Shown one piece after another: positions 1,685 through 27,463 of a DNA stretch of 64,000 nt. This stretch comes from Bacteroidia bacterium. Its GTDB lineage: Bacteria; Bacteroidota; Bacteroidia; UKL13-3. Numbering within the stretch: the first letter of the stretch is position 1; each line of letters opens with the position of its first letter. The stretch lies in NCBI GenBank assembly GCA_044337585.1, contig JBIINH010000001.1, positions 9,087-73,086 on the forward strand, read 5' to 3'. The position numbers and the translations under genes are program-made. The notes under the pieces are model-generated. The model worked only from the letters and a program-made list of their open reading frames with translations. It was not told the DNA's origin and searched no databases.

Positions 1685-2692
1685 ATGGCACTAATTGAAT
1701 TTACGGAAAAGGGAATGTATGTTGCCCAAGCAGGTGTATACATCGATCCATGGAGAGGCGTAGATCGCGCCATCATCACTCACGGGCACAGTGATCATGC
1801 CAGAAGCGGAAGCGAACACTACCTATCTCATGTGCAATCGTTACCCATTTTGAGAAGAAGAATAGGAAATCAACAATTTCAAGGTGTGGTTTATGGTGAA
1901 TCAATTAATATAAATGGAGTAAAGTTTTCATTACATCCTGCGGGTCATGTTTTGGGTTCATCACAAGTGAGGGTTGAATACAAAGGTGAGATATGGGTTG
2001 CTAGTGGCGATTATAAATTAGAAAATGATGGGGTGAGCCCTGCCTTTGAGCCCGTAAATTGCCATACATTCATCACAGAGTCTACTTTTGGTTTACCTGT
2101 ATTTAATTGGCAACCCCAACATACAATCATGAATGAGATTAACGATTGGTGGAAACTTAATAAGGAAAAAGGAATGTGCAGCATATTGCTTGCATACTCA
2201 TTAGGAAAAGCGCAACGTATCCTTCAACATATCGACCCATCAATTGGTAATGTATATGTGCATGGCTCAGTCGCATCTATGAACGAAGCCTATGAGGAAG
2301 CTGGCATAACTTTAAATAAATATCAAAAGCCTACAGCTGATTTGCCTAAATCTGCTTATGCCGGAGCCTTGGTTATTGCACCATCGAGCACAGAAAACTC
2401 ATCATGGATGAAACGATTTGAACCTTACAGCACTGGTATTGCAAGCGGTTGGATGGCCATGCGTGGATTTAGGAGAAGGATGTCGGCTGATAGGGGATTT
2501 GTATTAAGTGACCATGCTGATTGGGCCGGATTGAATAAAGCCATTTCTGCTACAGGTGCCTCTAAAATATTGGTTACTCATGGATATACACAGCCTTTCT
2601 CCCGTTGGCTAAACGAAAAGGGATTAGAAGCACATGCCGTTCAAACCCGATTTACGGGTGAGTCTCCGGAAAATAAAGACGAACCAGTGTGA
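1685..2692 (+). CDS. ligase-associated DNA damage response exonuclease (metallo-beta-lactamase/beta-CASP fold)
   Basis: Carries the HGHSDH metallo-beta-lactamase motif. It ends 4 nt inside the start of the ATP-dependent ligase (2689), so the two are translationally coupled. Co-operonic with the Lhr-like helicase. Confidence 0.8.
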   Translation: MALIEFTEKGMYVAQAGVYIDPWRGVDRAIITHGHSDHARSGSEHYLSHVQSLPILRRRIGNQQFQGVVYGESININGVKFSLHPAGHVLGSSQVRVEYKGEIWVASGDYKLENDGVSPAFEPVNCHTFITESTFGLPVFNWQPQHTIMNEINDWWKLNKEKGMCSILLAYSLGKAQRILQHIDPSIGNVYVHGSVASMNEAYEEAGITLNKYQKPTADLPKSAYAGALVIAPSSTENSSWMKRFEPYSTGIASGWMAMRGFRRRMSADRGFVLSDHADWAGLNKAISATGASKILVTHGYTQPFSRWLNEKGLEAHAVQTRFTGESPENKDEPV

Positions 2693-4269
2693 AAGCATTT
2701 GTTGATTTGTTTCAGGCTCTTGATCGCACTACCCGCACCAATGAGAAAATAGATGCGCTCTGTAAATATTTGCAGAACGCTAGTGATGAAGATAAACTAT
2801 GGACCATCGCCTTATTTACAGACCGGCAACCTAAGCGAGCAGTAAAATCAACAGAGTTGAGGGCTTGGGCTGCCGATGCTGCTAGTATTCCTTTGTGGTT
2901 GCTTGAGGAATCATGGCATACCGTGGGTGATTTGTCTGAAACGATTGCTTCTATTTTACCTAATTACATTTCCGAAAAAGAACAACCGTTAACCTACTGG
3001 ATTCAGTATATCCGCAATATGTATGGACTGAAAGAAGAAGAGAAAAAATCGCAGTTGCTCCAAGCATGGAAATCATTTTCGAAAGAGGAACGATTTGTAT
3101 TCAATAAGTTAACTTCAGGTAATTTTCGAGTGGGTGTTTCGCAAAAAATATTGGTAAAAGCACTTGCCAAATATTCAGATATTGCTGAAAATACCATTAC
3201 GCACCGATTAATGGGCAATTGGCATCCAGATGATGTTTCTTACGGAGAATTAATTACTGTGGGTAATGAAACCGATGATTTTTCGAAACCCTATCCCTTT
3301 TACTTAGCTTATTCATTAGAAAAGCAATTACCTGAATTAGGGGATATCAATGAATGGCAGGCAGAATATAAATGGGATGGTATTCGTTGCCAACTTATCA
3401 AACGAAATGGACAATTGTTTATTTGGTCTAGAGGCGAAGAACTCATCACCTCAGGTTTTCCCGAATTTGAGGATTTGATTGGAAAATTACCAGATGGAAC
3501 TGTTTTAGATGGAGAGTTATTGGCATGTAATAAAGGTATTCCAATGCCATTTCAAGAATTGCAAAAGCGTATTAGCCGCAAAAAAGTAACAACAAAGATT
3601 AAGGAACAAATTCCTGTTTCAATATTCGCATATGATTTGTTGGAGTTTGATAAAATAGATATTAGGGCCAACCCTTTGCGCGAAAGACGCTTCTTGCTTG
3701 AAGAGCTTGTTCGTAAAATAGACACACCATTATTACAGCTATCAGCAAAAATTGAAGTGAATCAATGGGAAGACCTAAAGGATATTCAACAAGCAGCAAG
3801 AAATAAAATGGCAGAAGGCTTGATGTTGAAGCAAATTCATTCGCCTTATCTTTCGGGTAGGAAAAAAGGCGATTGGTGGAAGTGGAAAGTAGATCCCTAT
3901 ACTGTTGATGCAGTTTTGCTGTATGCCCAAAGTGGCAGTGGTCGCAGGGCAAATCTCTACACTGACTATACTTTTGCCGTGTGGAATGATTCAGGGCAAT
4001 TGGTCCCTTTTGCAAAAGCATATTCTGGTTTGACGGATTCTGAAATATTGCAAGTAGATACTTGGATACGAAAAAACACAATTGAGAAATTTGGACCAGT
4101 TAGAAGTGTGAATCCTACACTAGTTTTCGAAATTGGATTTGAAGGCATTAATGCATCACCTAGGCATAAGTCAGGAATTGCAGTTAGGTTTCCCCGTATA
4201 CTTAGGTGGCGAAAGGATAAGCCAGCCTCAGAGGCTGACCATATTAACATTCTAAAGGGGCTGATGTAG
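2689..4269 (+). CDS. ATP-dependent DNA ligase (LADDR-associated, LigC-like)
   Basis: Ligase motif I (EYKWDGIR, KxDG adenylation lysine) is followed by OB-fold region motifs. 526 aa. Confidence 0.9.
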   Translation: MKAFVDLFQALDRTTRTNEKIDALCKYLQNASDEDKLWTIALFTDRQPKRAVKSTELRAWAADAASIPLWLLEESWHTVGDLSETIASILPNYISEKEQPLTYWIQYIRNMYGLKEEEKKSQLLQAWKSFSKEERFVFNKLTSGNFRVGVSQKILVKALAKYSDIAENTITHRLMGNWHPDDVSYGELITVGNETDDFSKPYPFYLAYSLEKQLPELGDINEWQAEYKWDGIRCQLIKRNGQLFIWSRGEELITSGFPEFEDLIGKLPDGTVLDGELLACNKGIPMPFQELQKRISRKKVTTKIKEQIPVSIFAYDLLEFDKIDIRANPLRERRFLLEELVRKIDTPLLQLSAKIEVNQWEDLKDIQQAARNKMAEGLMLKQIHSPYLSGRKKGDWWKWKVDPYTVDAVLLYAQSGSGRRANLYTDYTFAVWNDSGQLVPFAKAYSGLTDSEILQVDTWIRKNTIEKFGPVRSVNPTLVFEIGFEGINASPRHKSGIAVRFPRILRWRKDKPASEADHINILKGLM

Positions 4270-4294
4270 GAAATCTACATGAAATTAATTAACA

Positions 4295-4594
4295 TTGAAA
4301 TCGTTAAAAAATATGCTTATGTTACTCGCTAAAAGAATTAGAATGATACGCAAACAAAAGATGAAAACTCAAGAAGAGATTTGTCAAATAATTGGTATCA
4401 CCCAACCTGCCTACTCTCAATATGAGAATGAAGCTGCAAATATGACCTTTGGCACCATCATAAAAATTGCTGAAGCATTAGAGGTTCCAATCCCATTCTT
4501 AACAGATATTTATTCTGAACATACCGATTATGACGCTTGGAGAAATGATTTGCAATCTTATAAAGTAGTAAAAAAATTTGTAACAAATGAATAG
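4295..4594 (+). CDS. XRE-family helix-turn-helix transcriptional regulator (short, no peptidase domain)
   Basis: Lambda-Cro/XRE-like HTH (QEEICQIIGITQPAYSQYENE). The real start may be an internal Met (MLMLLAKRIR...). It overlaps the next gene by 8 nt. Confidence 0.7.
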   Translation: MKSLKNMLMLLAKRIRMIRKQKMKTQEEICQIIGITQPAYSQYENEAANMTFGTIIKIAEALEVPIPFLTDIYSEHTDYDAWRNDLQSYKVVKKFVTNE

Positions 4595-5132
4595 TATAAT
4601 AAAAACGTTAGCCTGGCCATTAGGAATTATTTCTTTAGCCTTACTAGTGATAGGACTTATTGCAGTTACCGCACCCAATATGACCATAGAAACACTGGTT
4701 TTATATTTTGCAGTAATGTTGCTGATTATTGGCAGTGTTCAGTTATTGATAGCCATTGTGCTAAGAAACAAAATGAAGCTTTGGTTGGCATTGGCATCCT
4801 TATCAGCGTTGTTTTTAGTTGCTGGGGGATACATGATCTACAACCCTGAAAAATCGAAAGTAGCATTCGAGAATGCCATTTCAATTTGGGCTGTTTCAAC
4901 AGGGATTATTCAGCTGTTTTTAGCCTTTCGCAACCAATCAACCCGCATATTCTTATTAAGCGGTGGCATATTGTCTATCATTATTGGCCTTATACTTTAT
5001 TTAAATGACAATACTCAGAATATGCAGTTTTTGTTCGGATTTTACACATTATTACTTAGCTTATTTATGTTACTTGTTGTGTTCAAAATTTTCAGAATGA
5101 AAACAGAACCAATTGAGTCTAGAAAGGTTTAA
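4587..5132 (+). CDS. DUF308/HdeD-like small multipass membrane protein
   Basis: 181 aa with about six hydrophobic helices and repeated GxxxG-like spacing typical of HdeD/DUF308. Translationally coupled to the HTH gene. Confidence 0.55.
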   Translation: MNSIIKTLAWPLGIISLALLVIGLIAVTAPNMTIETLVLYFAVMLLIIGSVQLLIAIVLRNKMKLWLALASLSALFLVAGGYMIYNPEKSKVAFENAISIWAVSTGIIQLFLAFRNQSTRIFLLSGGILSIIIGLILYLNDNTQNMQFLFGFYTLLLSLFMLLVVFKIFRMKTEPIESRKV

Positions 5133-5138
5133 CCTTAA

Positions 5139-7580
5139 GTGAACTCATCTCGTAACAAGCTAAATATTTCAAATGAATGGTTCCTTCTAAAAAAGTGGGA
5201 GCCATTTTTGTTTCAACTACAGTGCTGGGAAGCCTTTGATAAAGGAAAAAGCGGATTGCTAAATGCGCCAACAGGTTCTGGAAAAACCTATGCTTTGGCC
5301 CTACCTGCATTGGAATATATTGCTTCAAAAAAACAAAAAGGTGTAAAAGGGCTAATGGTTATTTGGATTACGCCAATAAGGGCATTAGCAAATGATTTAC
5401 AACATGCTATTTCCGATGCCGCTTCTTTTATATGTCCTGATGCAATTATAGCTGTTCGCACAGGAGATACTTCAACAAAAGAAAGGCAACAACAAAAACG
5501 AAATAGTCCAAATTTCCTTATCACCACACCAGAGAGTTTGCAATTGATGTTGGCACAAAAAGGCAGCACAACTATTTTTGAAAATTTAAGTTGCGTAGTT
5601 ATTGATGAATGGCACGAACTAATTGGAGGTAAACGTGGCGTTTTGGTTGAGTTAGCATTATCACGTTTGCGCAGCTTGATGCCTCAATTAAGAATATGGG
5701 GAATTAGCGCCACCATTGGCAATTTGGAAGAATCGATGGAAGTATTGCTTGGAAACAATGCTGCAAAAGGGGTGATGATAAAATCCAACTTACAAAAGCA
5801 AATTGAGGTTATTTCAATCATTCCGGATGAAATGGATACCTTTCCATGGGCAGGGCATTTGGGCACAAAACTCATTGATAAAGTTTTGCCCATCATACAT
5901 CAAGCAAAAACAACATTGGTGTTTACCAACACCCGTGCGCAAACTGAAATTTGGTATCAAGCATTATTAAATGCTATGCCAGAGTTGGCAGGCAGTATGG
6001 CCATGCATCATGGCTCAATCAATAATGATTTGCGCTATTGGGTGGAGCAACAATTGCACACCGGTGAATTAAAAGTAGTTGTCTGCACATCCAGTCTTGA
6101 CCTTGGCGTTGATTTTAGGCCGGTAGAGCAAGTGATTCAGGTTGGCGGTCCAAAGGGAATTGCACGTTTTTTGCAACGTGCAGGCAGAAGTGGGCATCAA
6201 CCAGGGGCGAAGAGCAAAATCTATTTTTTGCCAACACATGCTATTGAATTGATGGAAGCCTCTGCCATGCGTAAAGCCATCTCATTGCAAAAAATGGAAA
6301 GTAAAATTCCAGTTATACGTGCATTTGATGTGTTGTGTCAATACCTTGTTTCATTGGCCGTTGGAGATGGATTGGATGATAAAAAAGTTTATCAGGAAGT
6401 AAAATCAACATACTGTTTCAATAGCATCACGGATGATGAATGGGATTGGGTGATGCATTTCATCACACAAGGGGGAAAATCTTTGTATGCCTACGATGAG
6501 TTTAAAAAAGTGGAGTTGGATACAGATGGAAAATACCGTGTATTGAATAAGCGCATAGCCCTAAGGCATCGCCTATCAATTGGTGTTATTGTTAGTGATC
6601 CATCTATCGAAGTGAAATACATGAGCGGTTCGCGATTGGGAACAGTTGAAGAATATTTTATATCAAAAATGAAGCCCGGAGATGTGTTCACATTTGCTGG
6701 AAAAAGTTTAGAAATTGTACAATTCAAGGATTTGTCAGTTTTGGTTAGAAAGGTAAACAGAAAAGGAGCCATTGCCAGCTGGCAGGGTGGTCGATTGCCT
6801 TTATCAAACAAGCTTTCTGAAATGTTGCGAGAGGGTATTAGTGAATACCAAAACGGAGCCGAAAGGGATACCGAATATGCTGCTGTAGATAGGGTGTTGT
6901 CATTTCAACAAAAGCGTTCGTTATTGCCCACTAAACAAGAATTATTGATTGAGAAATTGCAGACCAAAGAAGGTTATCATGTATTTGTATATCCATTTGA
7001 AGGCCGAAACGTGCATGAAGGATTATCAGGATTGATGGCGTATCGCATTTCGCGTCAATTGCCCATTTCATTTTCAATTGCATTTAATGACTACGGATTT
7101 GAACTGCTAAGCGACCAACCCATACCAATAGAAAATGCTTTGGAAGAAGATGTATTTAGTGACAACGATTTGATAGCGGATATGATGCATAGTATCAATA
7201 GTATGGAAATGGCAAAAAGAAAATTCAGGGACATAGCCAATATAGCCGGACTAATCTTTACCGGGTTTCCCGGGAAAAACATGAAAACAAAACACTTGCA
7301 AGCATCCTCTTCTATGTTCTTTAAAGTACTATCCGAACATGAGCCCGATAATTTATTGGTGAAGCAAGCCTACGAAGAAGTATTGCTCGATCAGTTAGAA
7401 GAACTGAGGCTTCGCGAAACACTAAAAAGAATTGGCCAACAACAAATCAGGTTAGTTGAGTTGTCTCAGCCTTCGCCATTTGCTTTCCCAATAATGGTGG
7501 ACAGGCTTAGAGAAAAAATGTCTTCAGAAACAATTGAAGACAGAGTGAAGAAAATGCAAATCAAATTAATGAAAAGCTAA
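5139..7580 (+). CDS. ligase-associated DNA damage response DEXH-box helicase (Lhr-core-like)
   Basis: Walker A (NAPTGSGKT), DEWH box (VVIDEWHEL) and helicase C motifs (QRAGRSGH). 813 aa. Same operon as the ligase and exonuclease. Confidence 0.9.
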   Translation: MNSSRNKLNISNEWFLLKKWEPFLFQLQCWEAFDKGKSGLLNAPTGSGKTYALALPALEYIASKKQKGVKGLMVIWITPIRALANDLQHAISDAASFICPDAIIAVRTGDTSTKERQQQKRNSPNFLITTPESLQLMLAQKGSTTIFENLSCVVIDEWHELIGGKRGVLVELALSRLRSLMPQLRIWGISATIGNLEESMEVLLGNNAAKGVMIKSNLQKQIEVISIIPDEMDTFPWAGHLGTKLIDKVLPIIHQAKTTLVFTNTRAQTEIWYQALLNAMPELAGSMAMHHGSINNDLRYWVEQQLHTGELKVVVCTSSLDLGVDFRPVEQVIQVGGPKGIARFLQRAGRSGHQPGAKSKIYFLPTHAIELMEASAMRKAISLQKMESKIPVIRAFDVLCQYLVSLAVGDGLDDKKVYQEVKSTYCFNSITDDEWDWVMHFITQGGKSLYAYDEFKKVELDTDGKYRVLNKRIALRHRLSIGVIVSDPSIEVKYMSGSRLGTVEEYFISKMKPGDVFTFAGKSLEIVQFKDLSVLVRKVNRKGAIASWQGGRLPLSNKLSEMLREGISEYQNGAERDTEYAAVDRVLSFQQKRSLLPTKQELLIEKLQTKEGYHVFVYPFEGRNVHEGLSGLMAYRISRQLPISFSIAFNDYGFELLSDQPIPIENALEEDVFSDNDLIADMMHSINSMEMAKRKFRDIANIAGLIFTGFPGKNMKTKHLQASSSMFFKVLSEHEPDNLLVKQAYEEVLLDQLEELRLRETLKRIGQQQIRLVELSQPSPFAFPIMVDRLREKMSSETIEDRVKKMQIKLMKS

Positions 7581-7589
7581 GTAGCTTTT

Positions 7590-8027
7590 TTATGCTGGCC
7601 TAACAACAGCCATGCTGCTATTCGCCCTCGCTACTTCTATTTTTATACCATTGTTCTCGGTCCATAATTCAGACTCACAGAAATATAGCATCTTACCTGC
7701 TTTTACCACGTTTCCTTTTGCATATATATAATCGCCTATGGCAGGATTAAGAAATGCGTTTTGCAACTGGGCTGTTACTACATGTTCGCCCTCATTCACC
7801 AATGTAAAAGCAGCAACACCCATAACTATGTCAGCGATGGTCATGGTGAGCCCACCGTGTAGAAACCCTATTTGTTGTTTAAATTCCTCTTTTATGGCCA
7901 TTCTACCAAAGCATTCACCAGGTGTTAATTGGGTGAGTTCAAATCCGATATAGTTGGTAAAATGATTTGCAGCAAGCTTTTCTCTTATCATTTGCTCATA
8001 CGCTGCTTGTTTGGGTGTGTATTTCAT
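7590..8027 (-). CDS. PaaI-family hotdog-fold thioesterase
   Basis: 145-aa hotdog-fold protein with PaaI-like composition (HGGLTMTIADIVMG). Confidence 0.7.
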   Translation of the reverse strand: MKYTPKQAAYEQMIREKLAANHFTNYIGFELTQLTPGECFGRMAIKEEFKQQIGFLHGGLTMTIADIVMGVAAFTLVNEGEHVVTAQLQNAFLNPAIGDYIYAKGNVVKAGKMLYFCESELWTENNGIKIEVARANSSMAVVRPA

Positions 8028-8114
8028 CTTATGTGTGAGGTGTCGAATTATTTCTTTATTTGTTTACTTTTGAGGCATTACAAAAGTAACCGTTTGGTAT
8101 ATTAATCAACAAAC

Positions 8115-8969
8115 TTGGGAAATATAAAAAGATATATTGATAATGAATACATACAGCAGCATGCTGTGGACTTAGATGTATGGTATTATTTTTATGAATC
8201 GCGCATTGCTTGTTTGATTTGCAATCGGCATGATAAACGAGTGGCTGGTCTAATAACCATTGAGCATAAACATGTATTTGAGCTCAGTTTGTCGCAGCTA
8301 AAAGATGCGCTTTCTCAGATTGGATTGCCAGAGTTGTCATCAGAGCAAAAACATCCTGTTATTGTAGATAGCAGATTTACCATTGTGCCTGAACCCCTCT
8401 ATGTTGGTGAAAAAGCAGAAATCATGTTTAAGTTGGTGCACCCACTGCATAGTACAGATCATTTAGGCGTATCTCAATTTGGTGGAAAAGTACTGTTGTA
8501 TGCTACCAGTGAGCTGTTTTACCGCACACTCAGAATTATTTTTCCAGGTTCAGAAATGCATCATTATGCCACCGATTTATTTAAATATCTAGAGCAGTTT
8601 GGTAACAATCCAGCTAATCGTGTTTATGTACATTTGCATGCAACCTATTTTGATGTAATTAATTACCAAAAACAAAACCTTACCTATCACAATACTTTTC
8701 CATACGAAGCAGATACCGATATTATTTATTTCTTGCTATCGGTATGTGAAAACCTGCAAATTCAATCCGAAAAAATTGAAGTAGTTTTATCCGGAGATTT
8801 TAATATTAACCATACACTTACAGGATTGATGAAAAAGTATATTCCAACAGTAACAATCATGCAGCGAAATGAAGAGTGGACCTATGCAGCATCTATGCGT
8901 GAATTGCAGGAACAGCAATATTTTATGGAATTAACCGGATTATTGTGCGCATCATTTCAGGCTCATTAA
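8115..8969 (+). CDS. conserved hypothetical protein (DUF3822-like, the usual upstream neighbour of rsmD in Bacteroidota)
   Basis: Open frame with no in-frame ATG near the 5' end. The track start is TTG at 8115. No recognisable catalytic motifs. The synteny with rsmD-coaD is typical of the group. Confidence 0.4.
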   Translation: MGNIKRYIDNEYIQQHAVDLDVWYYFYESRIACLICNRHDKRVAGLITIEHKHVFELSLSQLKDALSQIGLPELSSEQKHPVIVDSRFTIVPEPLYVGEKAEIMFKLVHPLHSTDHLGVSQFGGKVLLYATSELFYRTLRIIFPGSEMHHYATDLFKYLEQFGNNPANRVYVHLHATYFDVINYQKQNLTYHNTFPYEADTDIIYFLLSVCENLQIQSEKIEVVLSGDFNINHTLTGLMKKYIPTVTIMQRNEEWTYAASMRELQEQQYFMELTGLLCASFQAH

Positions 8970-9484
8970 AAAGCATTGTGCTTCGCCCGCCTTCAGGCTT
9001 GCCGGTTAGGCCAACCACTGATAGAGCCAAAGAAAGTTTGTTTAATATTCTCGAAAATCAATTTGATATTTCAGCATTATCTGTTTTAGATATTTTTTCT
9101 GGAACTGGAAACATCAGTTATGAGTTTTGCTCTCGTGGTGCCAAACAAGTTATTGCTGTTGATATTCATTCAGGTTGCATTCAGTATATAAAAGAGGTAA
9201 AACAAAAACATTTGTTAAACCAACTATCGGTGTGTAGGAAGGATGCTTTTACATATCTTAATCAATGTGAACAAAACCAGTTTGATATCATTTTCGCTGA
9301 TGCACCTTATGCACTGCATCGCATTTTGGACATTCCAAGCATTGTTTTAAATAAGCAACTACTCAAATCCAATGGCTTACTTATAATTGAACATGATACC
9401 AATTTGGAAATGCAACTACAAATCGGTTTTTTTGATAAAAGAACCTATGGTCAATCTGCCTTTTCTTTTTTCAGATTTTCGTAA
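8945..9484 (+). CDS. rsmD: 16S rRNA (guanine966-N2)-methyltransferase RsmD
   Basis: N-terminus MRIISG...K is typical of RsmD. SAM-binding motif (LDIFSGTGNISYE) and DPPY-like motif (FADAPYA). Confidence 0.85.
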   Translation: MRIISGSLKSIVLRPPSGLPVRPTTDRAKESLFNILENQFDISALSVLDIFSGTGNISYEFCSRGAKQVIAVDIHSGCIQYIKEVKQKHLLNQLSVCRKDAFTYLNQCEQNQFDIIFADAPYALHRILDIPSIVLNKQLLKSNGLLIIEHDTNLEMQLQIGFFDKRTYGQSAFSFFRFS

Positions 9485-9496
9485 ACGCATATAACT

Positions 9497-9967
9497 ATGA
9501 CAGCACCCATCAGACGCAAAGCACTATTTCCAGGCACATTTGATCCGATTACGGTTGGACACGTTAATATCATAGAACGGGCTATGAACTTATTTGACGA
9601 AATAGTGGTGGGTATAGGAAAAAACAGCAGCAAAGCTACCTTGTTTCCACTAGAAAAACGTGAGCAATGGATTCGAGATATTTTTAAAGCCCATACCAAA
9701 GTAAGTGTAGCTACATACGATGGATTAACTGTAGACTTCTGCAGAGAGATAGGGGCGAATTTTGTCTTACGTGGCCTGCGCAATATGGCCGATTTTGATT
9801 ATGAAAAAAACATTGCCCAAATGAATAAGCTGGTTTATAATGAGGCGGAAACTGTTTTCTTAATGTGCGACCCAGCATATACCCCAATAAGCTCATCAGT
9901 TGTTCGCGACCTTATTCGCAACAATGGAAGTATTGAGGGATTTGTGCCCAAAGAAGTAAAACTGTAA
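9497..9967 (+). CDS. coaD: phosphopantetheine adenylyltransferase
   Basis: N-terminal nucleotidyltransferase motif GTFDPITVGH. 156 aa, the typical CoaD length. Confidence 0.9.
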   Translation: MTAPIRRKALFPGTFDPITVGHVNIIERAMNLFDEIVVGIGKNSSKATLFPLEKREQWIRDIFKAHTKVSVATYDGLTVDFCREIGANFVLRGLRNMADFDYEKNIAQMNKLVYNEAETVFLMCDPAYTPISSSVVRDLIRNNGSIEGFVPKEVKL

Positions 9968-10678
9968 TTACTTTGCCATTGCCTGAATTTTCAAATTAGC
10001 GGGCCATTTTTCTATGGCATATCGCAATGCTGTTCGCGGCATTTTTTGTTTGTTTTGCAGCACAAAATCTATAATTCGGTCAGGCTGTTTTTCAAAACTT
10101 ACTTTTAGCATCCATCCATATCCTTTCTGCACCATGTCATCCGGGTCTTTTAGAAGAATAGAGGCAATTTTTAATATTTCATTTGTAAACAATCCCCTTT
10201 TGCCGGGTATAATGAGCGATACGGCAGCAGCCCTTCGCATCCAGGTATTTTTGCTTTTTGCCCAAGCAAACAGTTTAGGCAATGAGTCAGGGTATTGCAT
10301 GATGTACGAGCCAACGCTGTGGTTGCAAAAAGTATCACACGTAGCCCAATTGGTAATGTATTTCGTTATCCATTTTTCAAAAATGGGAAGGTCATTTTCT
10401 AAAAAGTTTTTCTTTTGCCTATACGACCAATCACATGCAACCATCGCTTCTTCTTGTATGCCTGATTTCCATAGGATTTCGCAAAGTTTAAATACATCAA
10501 CTTTTGAGGGTTTGTCCAATAATCGGTAATATTTTCTGCTGAGCAGTTTCAAGTCAGCTGCTTTAATGCCAATACACTGAATCTCGTTCTTGAAAAAACG
10601 CTGCGTTGATAAGGCAATGGCTTCGTTAGATTGATCAGCCATTTCTTGTTTTAACTGTTGCAACACTTTTTTTGTCAT
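9968..10678 (-). CDS. DNA alkylation repair protein (AlkD-like HEAT-repeat family)
   Basis: 236-aa helical-repeat protein whose N-terminal pattern (STQRFFKNEIQCIGIKAADLKLLSRKYY) matches the DNA alkylation repair enzyme family. Confidence 0.65.
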   Translation of the reverse strand: MTKKVLQQLKQEMADQSNEAIALSTQRFFKNEIQCIGIKAADLKLLSRKYYRLLDKPSKVDVFKLCEILWKSGIQEEAMVACDWSYRQKKNFLENDLPIFEKWITKYITNWATCDTFCNHSVGSYIMQYPDSLPKLFAWAKSKNTWMRRAAAVSLIIPGKRGLFTNEILKIASILLKDPDDMVQKGYGWMLKVSFEKQPDRIIDFVLQNKQKMPRTALRYAIEKWPANLKIQAMAK

Positions 10679-11337: not shown

Positions 11338-11763
11338 ATGAAATTTTTACAAACATATACATACACTGCCATTCTTGCTATTTTGCTTTTTGGTTGTTCT
11401 GGAGGCGAAAAAAAAATGACAGTATCACAACCCGATACGTTGCTTACTCGCTCTGAAATGGCTAAGATACTAACCGATATTCATTTGGCAGATGTAATTA
11501 TTACAGACAAAGCATTGCCATCAGATTCGGCATCCGCCCTTCGACAAGGATTTTATGAAGCTATTTTTAAGAAATTTAATCATAGCGAAGAAACAATCAG
11601 AAGCAATTTTGCGTATTATAAAACAGATATGCCACAAATGGACTCTATTTATGCGGATATCATAAATCAATTGTCGCAAATGGAGGCATCCTACTCACGA
11701 ATTCCTGATAATATATCACTAACTAACGAAGGTAAATTTAATGCCATACCCACAAAACCTTGA
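11338..11763 (+). CDS. small lipoprotein of unknown function
   Basis: Start placed at MKFLQTYTYTAILAILLFGCSG, a lipobox-like signal. The longer track ORF begins inside the divergent yggS gene and is rejected. It overlaps the mutS2 start. Confidence 0.5.
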   Translation: MKFLQTYTYTAILAILLFGCSGGEKKMTVSQPDTLLTRSEMAKILTDIHLADVIITDKALPSDSASALRQGFYEAIFKKFNHSEETIRSNFAYYKTDMPQMDSIYADIINQLSQMEASYSRIPDNISLTNEGKFNAIPTKP

Positions 11764-14110
11764 GCATAAGCTCGAGTTTGATCAAATAAGAACCCGACTA
11801 AACGATTTGTGTATTTCGCCACTGGGGCAGCAATACGTTTCGCAAATCCGTTTCACTACCAAAAATGATAGGGTAGAAATGATGCTTAGGCAAACACACG
11901 AATTTGTTAGCATACTTTCAACAGACAAGCCATTTCCGTCAGAACATTTTTACCCAATTGACATTTACTTAAAAAAGGCTTCGCTAGAGGGAATGTTTTT
12001 GATTGAAGATGAACTGCATCACATTTTACTTATGATGCGCACTTTTACTCAAATATGTAAATATTTCGAAGACCGTAGTGAAAATTATCCAGAGCTTTTT
12101 CAAATTTTTGGAGGCATCACACTTCAGCCACATATCATCAAAAATATTGAGAAAGTGATTGATGAAGAAGGCATTATCAGGCCTAATGCATCGCCCGAAC
12201 TTTCAAAGCTTTCGAGCCAAATTGCAGATAAAGAAAAAGAAATTAGAAGGCGAATTAATAAGCTTTATGAGAAATACTACGAACTGAATTATTTAGGCGA
12301 TACGGGCATTACGGTTAGAGACGGACGTTTGGTATTGCCTGTTTTGGCCGATCATAAAAAACATGTAGTGGGGTTTGTGCACGATGAATCAGCAACTGGG
12401 CAAACCATTTTTATAGAGCCTACTGAAGTATTTGATTTGAATAACATATTGCGTGAATTGCAAATTGCCTATCGCAGGGAAAGAGAACGCATATTGACAG
12501 AGTTAACCTCACGCCTGAGGCCTGATTTGCCCGAGTTGGCCAAGTATACCCAGAAGATGGGAATTGCAGATTTCATTAGGGCAAAAGCATTGCTTGCAAT
12601 GCAATTGGACGCAAACATGCCAGTGCTCACCAAACATCCCGTCTTGCATTTGCAGAAAGCATTTCACCCCTTGCTTAAAATGCGCTTGCAGAAAAATAAA
12701 CAGGAAGTTGTTCCGCTCAATATAGTGATGAATAGAGATAGCCGCATTGTGGTGATATCGGGGCCAAATGCCGGAGGTAAATCTGTATGTCTGAAAACAG
12801 TTGGGTTATTGCAGTATATGGCTCAGTGTGGTTTGTTAATTCCAGCTTCACCAAATAGTGAAATATATGTGTTTAGCGATTTAATGGTTGATATTGGTGA
12901 CGAGCAATCAATAGAAAATGATTTGAGTACTTACAGCTCACACCTCAAGCACATGAAATATTTTACCGATTTTGTGAATGCCAAAACACTGTTTTTGATT
13001 GATGAATTTGGAACCGGTACCGACCCACAGTTTGGAGGACCACTGGCAGAAGCAATATTGGATAAATTGATGCGAAAAGGAGCATATGGTGTGGTAACAA
13101 CCCACTACAGTAACTTGAAAAATTATGCATCCAATACGCAGTTTATCCAAAATGCAAGCATGTTATTTGATAATGTAAATCTTATTCCATTATACATACT
13201 CGAGCAAGGCAAACCCGGAAGCTCTTATGCATTTGAAATAGCTCAAAAAACCGGTTTGCCTGATGATGTATTGCAGTATGCAAAAAGCAAGATAGGTGAT
13301 AAACAAAAAAGGGTAGATGATTTGCTGATTGAATTGGAGCGTGAGAAGAAACATGTGAGCGAACTCAAACAACGTTTTGAGAAACGGGATATAGAAGCGC
13401 AAACGATGTTGGAAAAGTATGAGTTGCTGACAAAAGAGATTGAAACACAAAAGAAAAAATTGATAGCAGCCGCTAAGCACGAAGCACGCTCATTGATTAG
13501 CGAGGCCAATAGCCGTATTGAAAATACCATTCGTGAAATCAAAGAGAAAAAAGCAGATACCGAAACCATCAGAAAAGTGAGGCAAGACATTAAGCAGGAA
13601 ACCGAAAAGCTAAAAATAACCGAAGCCCCTGCTGAAAAACCCAAACCCAAACCGATTCATTCTATCGCAATAGGCATGACAGTGAAGATGAGCGGGCAAA
13701 GTGAACCGGGTGAAATATTGGAACTTAAAAAAGGAAAAGCCCTTGTAAGTTTTGGATTCATACAAACATGGGTAGATACGGACAGGCTAGAGATTTCAAC
13801 CGTTGCCGATAAAAATAAAACAATTGCAAAATCGCCAATGGATTTGAATACTAAAATCCAACATTTTCAAACCGAACTTAACCTGATTGGTGTAAGGGGA
13901 GAAGATGCCATTCGGAAGTTGCAAGAGTATATGGATGATGCCTATTTATTAGGTTTCAAACAAGTGCGCATTGTGCATGGAAAAGGATATGGAATTTTAC
14001 GTAAGTTGGTACGCGAGTGGTTGCGTAAATCAGGCATGGTTGAATCTATTGCAGATGAACACATCGAAATGGGAGGAGATGGCGTAAGTATTGTTACGTT
14101 GAAACTTTGA
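11741..14110 (+). CDS. mutS2: endonuclease MutS2
   Basis: Typical MutS2 N-terminus (MPYPQNLEHKLEFDQIR), Walker A (ISGPNAGGKS) and a C-terminal Smr domain. 789 aa. Confidence 0.9.
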   Translation: MPYPQNLEHKLEFDQIRTRLNDLCISPLGQQYVSQIRFTTKNDRVEMMLRQTHEFVSILSTDKPFPSEHFYPIDIYLKKASLEGMFLIEDELHHILLMMRTFTQICKYFEDRSENYPELFQIFGGITLQPHIIKNIEKVIDEEGIIRPNASPELSKLSSQIADKEKEIRRRINKLYEKYYELNYLGDTGITVRDGRLVLPVLADHKKHVVGFVHDESATGQTIFIEPTEVFDLNNILRELQIAYRRERERILTELTSRLRPDLPELAKYTQKMGIADFIRAKALLAMQLDANMPVLTKHPVLHLQKAFHPLLKMRLQKNKQEVVPLNIVMNRDSRIVVISGPNAGGKSVCLKTVGLLQYMAQCGLLIPASPNSEIYVFSDLMVDIGDEQSIENDLSTYSSHLKHMKYFTDFVNAKTLFLIDEFGTGTDPQFGGPLAEAILDKLMRKGAYGVVTTHYSNLKNYASNTQFIQNASMLFDNVNLIPLYILEQGKPGSSYAFEIAQKTGLPDDVLQYAKSKIGDKQKRVDDLLIELEREKKHVSELKQRFEKRDIEAQTMLEKYELLTKEIETQKKKLIAAAKHEARSLISEANSRIENTIREIKEKKADTETIRKVRQDIKQETEKLKITEAPAEKPKPKPIHSIAIGMTVKMSGQSEPGEILELKKGKALVSFGFIQTWVDTDRLEISTVADKNKTIAKSPMDLNTKIQHFQTELNLIGVRGEDAIRKLQEYMDDAYLLGFKQVRIVHGKGYGILRKLVREWLRKSGMVESIADEHIEMGGDGVSIVTLKL

Positions 14111-17872: not shown

Positions 17873-19879
17873 CTACAACTGAACCCTATTTTTTTTGTAA
17901 AAAAGGTCCATACTTAATACATGTGGAATGCTGATGCAAGAAAGTAGAATAAAGAAAATGCTAATATAATCTGCACGGTTTAGCAACATAAATGCAACGA
18001 TTATAAATGCACCACCCATGCTAAATGGAAGCGATTTTTTCCAAAGTTGATACGTATTGGTTTTTAATGCTGTTTTTAAATGGCTCCATCCATGAAAGCT
18101 GTGTTGAATAACAAAGTATATGCCAAATGAAACTAGTAATGGCAACATACTTGAAATAAGGAGGTAGCTGAAAGTTAGAGCCATGCGCTTAGACTTATTG
18201 TAAACAATCATCAATATTGAAAGCATAGAAACGATAAGTTTCGAATACAATATTATTGGTTGGGTTAATGTTTGTAAATAGGTGTTAAGTTTCAAACCTT
18301 TTATGTGTTCAAGAACTGAAAGTGTTTCTTCGAAATGGAAAATCAAAATGAGCGCAAGCACCGATAGTCCCCACAAAAAAGAATTAGGGCCTTGTTTTAA
18401 ATTCCACTCATTGGTATCAGCTTGTCCGAAATGCCAAGCCGAGTATGCAATAAATGTAATTAATGCCAAATCGGGTAGGATAAACCAAATAGCGCCTAAC
18501 AAAGCGCCTTTGGCAAGATAGGCTGCAATAAATTTGATAAATTGCCTCTGCCCGTTAATTTTCTGATCGGTTAAATGATCAACTGCACCATGTGATAAAC
18601 CAATTGTTAAAAAGCCCAAACCTAAGAAAATCCAAAGTACTTCTTGCCATTGATTTATGTGCAAAAACAAAGATGCGAGTGTGAAGAGAAGTGCAGCTAA
18701 AGTGGGGGTGAGTGCAGATATTTTGTAGCTCACATCTTTTACTGCGGTTTTTAAAAAAAGTGCGATAGGGAGTTTCGAAAAAATATGAATCTCGTTAGGT
18801 ATACTTGTTTTTTCATTTAAAAAAGTGAGAACCTTAGAGATGGGAATATTTGTGAATAAGCATTGAAAAATTTCTTTGCCTCGGCTGGGTGATAATTCTA
18901 AAATTTTAAGTAATAACCTATCGTAGAATTTAAATCTAGAAATACGATTATTGCGTTTATATAATTCTCCTTTTTGGATTGCCTCGGCTAGGCTTTTAGC
19001 ATCTTTAGCCATAGCATGAAAAGCATATCCAGTTGAGGGTTTTATCATATTTGCTTTTGCACCCGTATATAACCAATTTGCTCCATAATGATTATTGGCT
19101 ATTGTTGCCGAAGACATTGGAACCACACCTATCTCTTTGTCTAAAATAGTATAGTTGATTCCCAATTTTTGGATATACTCTTTAAATATGATTTCGGCAT
19201 CATGCTTGGAGATAATCTCTTTACCAAATCTAGTAATTTCAAATAGCGCAGTGCGATCTGTGAATGGGAGTATATACATAAATTGGCATGCATCATTTTG
19301 TGCAATGTCAAAATCCATCATCGTTGCTGTGCTAGTATCAAATTCAGCATTTGTTGTTTGAATTTCCCAACCATAAAAAGATTGGTACAAATGGCTTTGG
19401 TTGTTTTTAGGTGGAGAAAATATAGGTGGTCGGCTGTCGAATACTTTTTGGGCAATTATTTTGTCATTTCCTACATCAACCTGATATGAGTTGTTGTTGA
19501 GTATGTTTGGTTCGTTGCTAAGTGAGGTTGTGTAGAATTGAGTTGTTTCCTTCTTTAGGATTTCTTTGGCTTTGTTGTATAAATCTATTCCCTTGATATG
19601 GAAATAATTTAGGGGAGTGATGTGCTGTTTCAAGCCATTCACGTTAATGTGGCTCCATGATGAACTGATGAGTTGTTGAAGATTTAGTTCAGATACTTCT
19701 TCTTCACTTGTCCAGAAACAGAAGGTTCTGTCATTTACATTTTTGCTACTAGGTTCAATTACAGCAATCTTTTTATCCTTCAATAGGCCTTTTTCAAACA
19801 AGTTAAGCAACAACAAAGAATTGGCTGCTCCTAATCCAATAAATAGGAAGTCAACTTCGATGTTCATATTACTTTTCAT
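17873..19879 (-). CDS. fusion protein with an N-terminal CrtY-type lycopene beta-cyclase domain and a C-terminal Brp/Blh beta-carotene 15,15'-dioxygenase domain
   Basis: N-terminal about 380 aa has the FAD/Rossmann motif DFLFIGLGAANSLLL and the CrtY blocks (DRTFCFW, QFMYILPF...LFEITRF, KPSTGYAF). C-terminal about 290 aa is a 7-TM domain with conserved His residues (GAVDH, WHFGQAD, QHSFHGWSH) typical of Blh. It is one uninterrupted 668-aa ORF. Confidence 0.8.
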   Translation of the reverse strand: MKSNMNIEVDFLFIGLGAANSLLLLNLFEKGLLKDKKIAVIEPSSKNVNDRTFCFWTSEEEVSELNLQQLISSSWSHINVNGLKQHITPLNYFHIKGIDLYNKAKEILKKETTQFYTTSLSNEPNILNNNSYQVDVGNDKIIAQKVFDSRPPIFSPPKNNQSHLYQSFYGWEIQTTNAEFDTSTATMMDFDIAQNDACQFMYILPFTDRTALFEITRFGKEIISKHDAEIIFKEYIQKLGINYTILDKEIGVVPMSSATIANNHYGANWLYTGAKANMIKPSTGYAFHAMAKDAKSLAEAIQKGELYKRNNRISRFKFYDRLLLKILELSPSRGKEIFQCLFTNIPISKVLTFLNEKTSIPNEIHIFSKLPIALFLKTAVKDVSYKISALTPTLAALLFTLASLFLHINQWQEVLWIFLGLGFLTIGLSHGAVDHLTDQKINGQRQFIKFIAAYLAKGALLGAIWFILPDLALITFIAYSAWHFGQADTNEWNLKQGPNSFLWGLSVLALILIFHFEETLSVLEHIKGLKLNTYLQTLTQPIILYSKLIVSMLSILMIVYNKSKRMALTFSYLLISSMLPLLVSFGIYFVIQHSFHGWSHLKTALKTNTYQLWKKSLPFSMGGAFIIVAFMLLNRADYISIFFILLSCISIPHVLSMDLFYKKNRVQL

Positions 19880-27380: not shown

Positions 27381-27452
27381 GGTCTCGTAGTACAACGGAT
27401 AGTATTTGGGTCTCCGGAACCCAAGATTCAGGTTCGATTCCTGACGAGACCG
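27381..27452 (+). tRNA. tRNA-Arg (anticodon CCG)
   Basis: Cloverleaf folded by hand: 7-bp acceptor stem (GGTCTCG/CGAGACC), D-arm, anticodon stem TGGGT/ACCCA with loop CTCCGGA (anticodon CCG), T-arm TCAGG-TTCGATTC-CCTGA, discriminator G. A T-run follows. Confidence 0.85.
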
Positions 27453-27463
27453 CTTTTTTTTCA

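Follow-up and report, generated by a model that had tools for sequence, protein, structure and literature searches.

What are a small DNA-binding protein and a six-helix membrane protein doing inside a DNA repair operon? The question is raised by positions 1685–7580 of a 64,000-nucleotide stretch of Bacteroidia DNA (contig JBIINH010000001.1; this whole stretch is called the window below), which are filled by five consecutive, tightly packed open reading frames (ORFs) on the plus strand. They make up a genuine Exo-LigB-Lhr-Core repair operon, also known as a ligase-associated DNA damage response (LADDR) operon, in a clade-specific five-gene form, in which genes for an XRE-type helix-turn-helix (HTH) protein and a DUF308 membrane protein lie between those for the ligase and the helicase. 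Both of these genes are real and under purifying selection. The reading that we favor, with a probability of roughly one in two, is that they form an integrated accessory module captured in an ancestor, with the DUF308 protein as its selected cargo and the HTH protein as an optional tuner.

All three enzymes score above the cutoffs of the NCBI families named "ligase-associated DNA damage response" (TIGR04120–04123). The beta-CASP/MBL exonuclease (Exo; 1685–2692, plus strand, 335 residues) matches TIGR04122 over its full length with 462 bits against a cutoff of 325, and has the catalytic motif HGHSDH at residue 33. The ATP-dependent DNA ligase of the LigB/LADDR type (2689–4269, plus strand, 526 residues) reaches 627 bits with TIGR04120 (cutoff 400) and 703 bits with NF006701; it contains the Pfam N, M and C ligase domains and a KWDG (KxDG) motif with K228. 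The Lhr-Core-type DExH helicase (5139–7580, plus strand, 813 residues) scores 1094 bits with TIGR04121 (cutoff 850) and combines DEAD, Helicase_C, WH_Lhr (PF19306) and DEAD_assoc (PF08494) domains with the motifs GSGKT and DEWH. Its GTG start at 5139 is favored over a 790-residue call, and the N-terminus is conserved from about residue 8. The exonuclease stop codon lies over the GTG start of the ligase in a 4-nucleotide overlap (GTGA), the DUF308 start lies over the HTH stop in an 8-nucleotide overlap (ATGAATAG), and 6 nucleotides separate the DUF308 and helicase genes. The preliminary description of this DNA, which was made from its letters without database searches, had recognized the LADDR exonuclease, KxDG ligase and Lhr-like helicase on one strand, the 4-nucleotide overlap of the first two, and an overlapping XRE HTH and DUF308 pair wedged between ligase and helicase, and all of this holds. 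The flanking genes had been given as an S46 peptidase upstream and a PaaI thioesterase downstream; the former is correct, but the latter, on the opposite strand, is a generic hotdog/4HBT thioesterase with 31 bits against the PaaI cutoff of 119.

The first of the inserted genes (4319–4594, plus strand) encodes a minimal XRE/Cro-C1-type HTH protein of 91 residues that matches PF01381 (HTH_3) with 51.8 bits against a cutoff of 23. Because all homologs begin MLLAKRI, the start is most likely ATG 4319 or else ATG 4313 (91–93 residues), not the alternative TTG 4295, which would give 99 residues. The AlphaFold2 (AF2) model, with a predicted local distance difference test (pLDDT) score of 83, has a five-helix Cro/C1 XRE fold (residues 3–13, 18–25, 29–37, 44–53 and 58–62) followed by one C-terminal helix of lower confidence. 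No peptidase, sensor or effector domain is seen in Pfam and NCBIfam scans or in the model, and the scans find no LexA/CI-type S24 peptidase domain in this protein of only 91 residues. An XRE HTH protein without a peptidase domain had been predicted, correctly apart from a length of 99 residues. Matches to phage repressor, restriction-modification controller-protein and HipB models are weak and all below their cutoffs (42.3 bits against 79 for the HipB antitoxin model NF007271), and PADLOC and PHROGs scans of the pair return only generic XRE matches. The protein resembles the small Cro/C1-type XRE regulators (phage Cro/RstR-like repressors, restriction-modification controllers, HipB) in its five-helix HTH_3 fold, its size of about 90 residues and its lack of an effector domain, but differs from them in that the specific models stay below cutoff and in its place mid-operon in a repair cluster, overlapping a membrane protein gene.

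The second inserted gene (4587–5132, plus strand) encodes a protein of 181 residues that matches PF03729 (DUF308) in two stretches with 60.6 bits against a cutoff of 25, and represents a LADDR-embedded branch that we call group A. Six hydrophobic segments are visible in the sequence, and in the AF2 model (pLDDT 83.8) six helices form a membrane bundle joined by loops of 3–10 residues, those on the cytoplasmic side being only 3–8 residues long. An N-in/C-in topology is favored because basic residues occur in loops 2–3 and 4–5 and in the C-terminal tail; given this topology, the invariant VTAPNM(T/S) motif would lie at the outer end of transmembrane helix 1. The protein had been described as an HdeD/DUF308-like protein with six transmembrane segments, of which the family and the six segments stand and HdeD does not. 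It shares Pfam family, approximate size and six transmembrane helices with HdeD, the acid-resistance membrane protein of Escherichia coli, but reaches only 22.8 bits with the HdeD equivalog model NF007577 (cutoff 189), so that only the broad DUF308 Pfam model is matched, and its context is DNA repair and not an acid fitness island. The molecular role of HdeD itself has been called "poorly understood" (PMC5861431).

Wherever homologs of the DUF308 protein with at least 50% identity turn up, they sit between a LADDR ligase gene and a LADDR helicase gene; this holds for at least four divergent lineages, whose flanking genes are completely different. Fifteen metagenome contigs carry exact or near-exact copies in unchanged gene order. 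Metagenome-assembled genomes with the module include GCA_046301595.1 and GCA_046300375.1, and the 1.34 Mb contig Ga0498938_0000004 has it as well. At 90% identity (L090/L091), gene order and flanks (S46 and 4HBT) are as in the window. At 58% identity (L092/L093), the order LMWPc-exonuclease-ligase-HTH-DUF308-helicase lies between PriA and ClpB genes, and at 54% (L094/L095), exonuclease-ligase-HTH-DUF308-helicase is followed by FdhD. At 50–51% identity (L096–L098, L107 and L108), the operon sits between LeuRS and TsaE genes and reads exonuclease-ligase-DUF308-helicase, with no HTH gene; in L096 and L108 the ligase stop codon overlaps the DUF308 start. A scan of metagenomes with the DUF308 alignment gave 11 loci, and an exhaustive profile search of 1.84 billion representatives gave two sequences above 200 bits; the LADDR-embedded branch is therefore very small. 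Neither tblastn nor profile hidden Markov models find the pair near 80 other LADDR loci, which have no DUF308 gene within 10 kb. Separately, we note that in L092 the gene for the low-molecular-weight phosphatase LMWPc (L092:6601–7101) overlaps the start of the LADDR exonuclease by 4 nucleotides, as if it were a sixth member of the operon.

More distant relatives of both proteins lead separate lives. DUF308 proteins of 30–39% identity (group B) are encoded by stand-alone genes in another conserved neighborhood, adjoining response regulators and a methyltransferase, and never occur with LADDR. In L099–L106 (around locus positions 7200–8600) the gene adjoins a divergent GerE-type response regulator with a 7TMR-DISM kinase, and in L103 and L104 a co-directional LytTR-type response regulator also adjoins it. 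This arrangement parallels hdeD next to gadE in E. coli, and it hints that the group B subfamily is habitually linked to transcription regulators. For the HTH protein, a profile search delineates a subfamily of about 55 clusters of proteins of 76–95 residues, in which the LADDR-linked members have in common the recognition region QPAYSQYE...EAAN(M/C)TF and a larger sister group has EQSTYSGYE...EAGNLKF instead. The genes of the sister group stand alone at unrelated loci and are not paired with DUF308: one (P0051) is upstream of an M43/T9SS peptidase gene, another (P0082) is monocistronic beside a desaturase gene, and a third (P0033) is the first gene of a separate unit where the contig ends. 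In the last case, two independent assemblies (L118:8237–8259 and L119:6912–6944) both break about 20–30 nucleotides after the gene, in a short tandem ACTATGAAGTATGA repeat. Because the sister HTH groups and the distant DUF308 relatives are stand-alone and never paired, the HTH-DUF308 pairing appears to exist only inside this operon clade. The same observation disposes of the notion, raised beforehand, that the pair might be a conserved independent unit at unrelated loci.

The history of the insertion can be read from a concatenated tree of exonuclease, ligase and helicase (1623 columns, 200 bootstraps). All DUF308-bearing operons form one clade with 100% bootstrap, in agreement with a helicase-only tree, and the insert-free locus L002 is sister to this clade, again with 100%. 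The HTH-less lineage is nested within the clade beside the window and L090 (82%). The simplest history is one capture of HTH plus DUF308 followed by one loss of HTH. The five genes diverge in step: amino-acid identities between the window and L092 are 69% for the exonuclease, 63% for the ligase, 65% for HTH, 58% for DUF308 and 68% for the helicase, and helicase identity across the clade is 66–89%. Between L096 and L108, where synonymous sites are unsaturated, the ratio of nonsynonymous to synonymous divergence (dN/dS) is 0.073 for DUF308 and 0.039–0.060 for the enzymes; between the window and L090, dN is 0.070 for DUF308 and 0.079 for the helicase, and the dN/dS of HTH is 0.105. The placement of the genes and the tree show that the module has been inherited vertically with the operon while its chromosomal neighbors changed completely. 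HTH is dispensable, as one sublineage lost it and kept DUF308.

The phosphoesterase PdeM (MPE) had been reported missing from both flanks, and indeed a profile built from 43 ORFs located directly downstream of the helicase in related loci (a representative scores 237 bits with TIGR04123) finds no match at E ≤ 10 when run against all six reading frames of the window, nor in any locus of the DUF308 clade (L081–L117 searched). This absence had been taken as a distinctive part of the remodeling, which it is not. Of the 71 Bacteroidota loci whose sequence extends at least 3 kb past the helicase, pdeM is present within 10 kb in 42 and missing in 29, and 25 of the 29 are complete exonuclease-ligase-helicase clusters (about a third of the 71 sampled). 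The insert-free sister L002 is also without pdeM. Because of L002 and these 25 loci, the loss of pdeM from the operon predates, and is independent of, the capture of HTH and DUF308.

Searches for regulatory sites gave little. A look for operator palindromes in 4270–4294, within the ligase-HTH spacer, and upstream of 1685 had been suggested, and only short or species-level repeats, none of them common between lineages, are found there. The spacer (4270–4318; 25–49 nucleotides long, depending on the HTH start codon chosen) contains only short AT-rich palindromes (AATTAATT at 4283–4292), is not conserved in L090, L092 or L094, and has no terminator-like site on the plus strand. The spacer between the S46 peptidase and exonuclease genes (1650–1684) holds an imperfect inverted repeat (1654–1663/1672–1681; arms of 10 nucleotides, 90% complementary) that L090, the closest species, has kept in part and the other lineages lack; it typifies the short species-level inverted repeats that are all the operon spacers contain. 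Enumeration against shuffles, both in front of the operon and in front of the HTH gene, reveals no inverted repeat common to at least three of the four lineages with HTH, a test of low power with four lineages. Scans for sigma-70-type promoters and for terminators give counts equal to those of shuffles with a model that is uninformative for Bacteroidota, and an Rfam scan finds no match within the operon. The Bacteroidota −7 box (TAnnTTTG) recurs inside the exonuclease and ligase genes, but we reject these matches as promoters: they fall at fixed codon positions and are also present in the insert-free L002, which indicates coding conservation. Going by the usual behavior of its family, the HTH protein may regulate its own expression.

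Taken together, we envisage that HTH and DUF308 were captured once between the ligase and helicase genes in the ancestor of a small clade whose operon had already lost pdeM. The five genes would be co-transcribed and translationally coupled, such that production of the repair enzymes would bring production of the membrane protein with it, and this co-expression would be what selection maintains. We regard DUF308 as the probable selected cargo because the sublineage without HTH has kept it and joined it anew to the ligase stop codon. The HTH protein would be an accessory small DNA binder of the repressor type that tunes expression of the unit and not the output of a DUF308 sensor. For DUF308, a function in membrane homeostasis or in the handling of a small solute, useful under the stress that calls for LADDR, seems the most plausible class. 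Several points weigh against this reading. Co-transcription is inferred from the spacing of the genes, and no promoter or operator was identified for the operon, nor any conserved between lineages, by eye, by repeat search or by the inverted-repeat test. No informative structural homolog was found for the DUF308 model, nor any tie in sequence or structure to nucleic-acid metabolism or a DNA repair mechanism, and the cytoplasmic loops are very short. The ligase-helicase junction is permissive to unrelated inserts in Flavobacteriia (DUF559, lipoproteins, an insertion sequence element), retention could reflect the difficulty of excising genes from an operon instead of a common function, and only some five to six independent lineages have been sampled.

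The main alternative, possible if doubtful, is that the two genes are hitch-hikers, that is, that they landed once in a permissive slot, are individually useful and persist because a clean mid-operon deletion is rare, with no role in repair or its regulation. In the 80 other Bacteroidota loci the junction is occupied by a DUF559 gene (21 loci), a lipoprotein-like ORF or a two-gene insert (6 loci each), a CBM9 lipoprotein gene (2 loci) or a transposase gene (1 locus), the nearest paralogs of both proteins are in unrelated contexts, and DUF308 lacks a link to nucleic-acid metabolism. However, the module stayed in the operon through complete turnover of the flanks in at least four lineages, DUF308 was re-coupled and not lost when HTH disappeared, group A is found only in LADDR, and DUF308 is as constrained as the helicase. 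At the other extreme, DUF308 might be a working partner of Lhr-Core, LigB and Exo, either as a membrane tether or localizer or as a small-solute channel for a genotoxic agent or its consequences; we consider this unlikely. A dedicated regulator with a membrane sensor, in which DUF308 would respond to a signal from the membrane or envelope and control an XRE protein that represses or activates the operon, strikes us as similarly improbable. It would fit the clean Cro/C1-type fold of the HTH model, whose extra C-terminal helix could bind a partner, the gene overlap, which suggests stoichiometric co-production, and the DNA-binding response regulators that adjoin group B genes. It is opposed by the retention of DUF308 without an adjacent HTH gene in L096–L098, L107 and L108, the lack of an operator common between lineages, the mid-operon position of HTH behind a non-conserved spacer of 25–50 nucleotides with no recognizable promoter, and cytoplasmic loops of a few residues. 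The regulator and membrane-sensor module of the preliminary description is consequently weakened.

The remaining explanations can be given very little weight. The preliminary description had left room for a strain-specific insertion, and an origin as mobile or defense cargo could be suggested by the dip in GC content to 0.33–0.35 over 4251–5250 and by the weak matches of HTH to phage repressor and controller-protein models. Yet low GC is expected for a membrane protein rich in Leu, Ile and Phe, no integrase, transposase or repeats flank the genes, and DUF308 has no PADLOC or PHROG match. Moreover, the pair is conserved over a deep clade with changed flanks in which all five genes co-diverge, and its placement in divergent lineages and the tree effectively refute a recent arrival, which we rate the least probable of all. 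A toxin-antitoxin-like pair, in which the XRE protein would be the antitoxin and the membrane protein encoded after it the toxin, would account for the gene order and overlap, which resemble type II operons, and for the 42 bits against the HipB model. Since that score is below cutoff and the pairing is not obligate, this possibility is effectively excluded; DUF308 is, in addition, a stand-alone housekeeping-like gene in group B, and the pair, lying inside an operon, has no promoter of its own. The lineages without HTH already imply that DUF308 made by itself is not toxic. Equally far-fetched is a functional replacement of the PdeM/MPE endonuclease. It would fit the absence of PdeM from the window and from all DUF308-clade loci, but the pdeM-less, insert-free sister and the 25 of 71 loci that lack both pdeM and the pair effectively exclude replacement, and a nuclease or phosphoesterase fold is seen in neither of the two inserted proteins.

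How, then, does the operon relate to known systems? Its closest counterpart is a repair gene cluster, Exo-Lig-Lhr-Core-MPE, of the Pseudomonas putida type (Ejaz & Shuman 2018, as relayed in PMC7826289 and PMC7470946), with which it shares the three enzymes, all scoring above their equivalog cutoffs, as well as the gene order (exo, lig, lhr), the use of a single strand and the tight spacing. It differs in having no MPE/PdeM in 64 kb and in the additional XRE HTH and DUF308 genes between lig and lhr. With three of the four defining genes, it is better classed as a new architecture of the known cluster than as a full four-gene member or a new system. The three-gene clusters of Christiangramia, Salegentibacter and Zunongwangia and of the metagenome-assembled genome locus L002 have the same enzymes in the same order and lack pdeM within 10 kb, and L002 also has the upstream S46 peptidase gene of the window; they differ in a ligase-helicase junction of 9–150 nucleotides or with unrelated inserts, and in having neither HTH nor DUF308. 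The DUF559 operons of Flavobacteriia resemble the window in carrying an extra small same-strand gene in the identical slot, but the DUF559 protein is soluble (63.8 bits with NF007294, cutoff 218) and PdeM is usually kept downstream. The literature searched, which did not include Ejaz & Shuman 2018 itself, makes no mention of an HTH or DUF308 gene embedded in a LADDR cluster.

The association of DUF308, with or without the XRE HTH, with a LADDR operon is thus previously undescribed and modestly interesting. To our knowledge, DUF308/HdeD is a large membrane-protein family without a known molecular function, and a branch kept in a repair operon across a clade is a guilt-by-association lead both on that family and on the repair pathway. 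Were DUF308 a repair partner after all, this would be the first mechanistic context for the family, and a bacterial repair pathway would gain a membrane component. The lig-lhr junction is also of interest as a site at which accessory genes gather in the course of evolution. What limits the lead is the clade, which is small, from uncultured and apparently freshwater Bacteroidota, and known only from metagenome contigs and metagenome-assembled genomes.

Several minor observations accompany these results. The ligase-helicase slot of Flavobacteriia is variable (L011, L015, L017, L020, L027, L034, L038, L039, L056 and others, around locus positions 8000–10000): the DUF559 gene encodes an endonuclease domain, the lipoprotein-like ORF is 172–181 residues long, the two-gene insert consists of an opposite-strand gene for 350 residues and one for a bestrophin-like membrane protein of 225 residues, and the transposase is in L056. 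Two loci, L001 (CAYSBE010000144.1) and L004 (CAZGVO010000018.1), bear the titles "uncultured Bifidobacteriaceae" and "Bifidobacterium sp." and are probably mislabeled or mis-binned; the L001 helicase is 91% identical to that of the window and is followed by thioesterase and DUF3822 genes, as in the Bacteroidota window.

Downstream of the operon, 2.4–4 kb beyond the helicase, the window has an AlkD-type DNA alkylation repair gene (9968–10678, minus strand; PF08713, 200 bits) and a MutS2/Smr gene (11741–14110, plus strand). The same synteny occurs in L082 and L090, which therefore points to a loose neighborhood of repair genes. Farther along, a single ORF of 668 residues (17873–19879, minus strand) encodes a fusion of lycopene cyclase and a Blh-type beta-carotene 15,15'-dioxygenase, which suggests retinal synthesis and a light-exposed lifestyle. 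A long same-strand array for polysaccharide export and biosynthesis (43514–63933, plus strand) includes Poly_export/SLBB, UDP-glucose dehydrogenase and flippase genes and a multi-glycosyltransferase fusion of 1003 residues. Finally, tRNA-Arg(CCG) (27381–27453, plus strand) is the only Rfam/ARAGORN match in the 64 kb.

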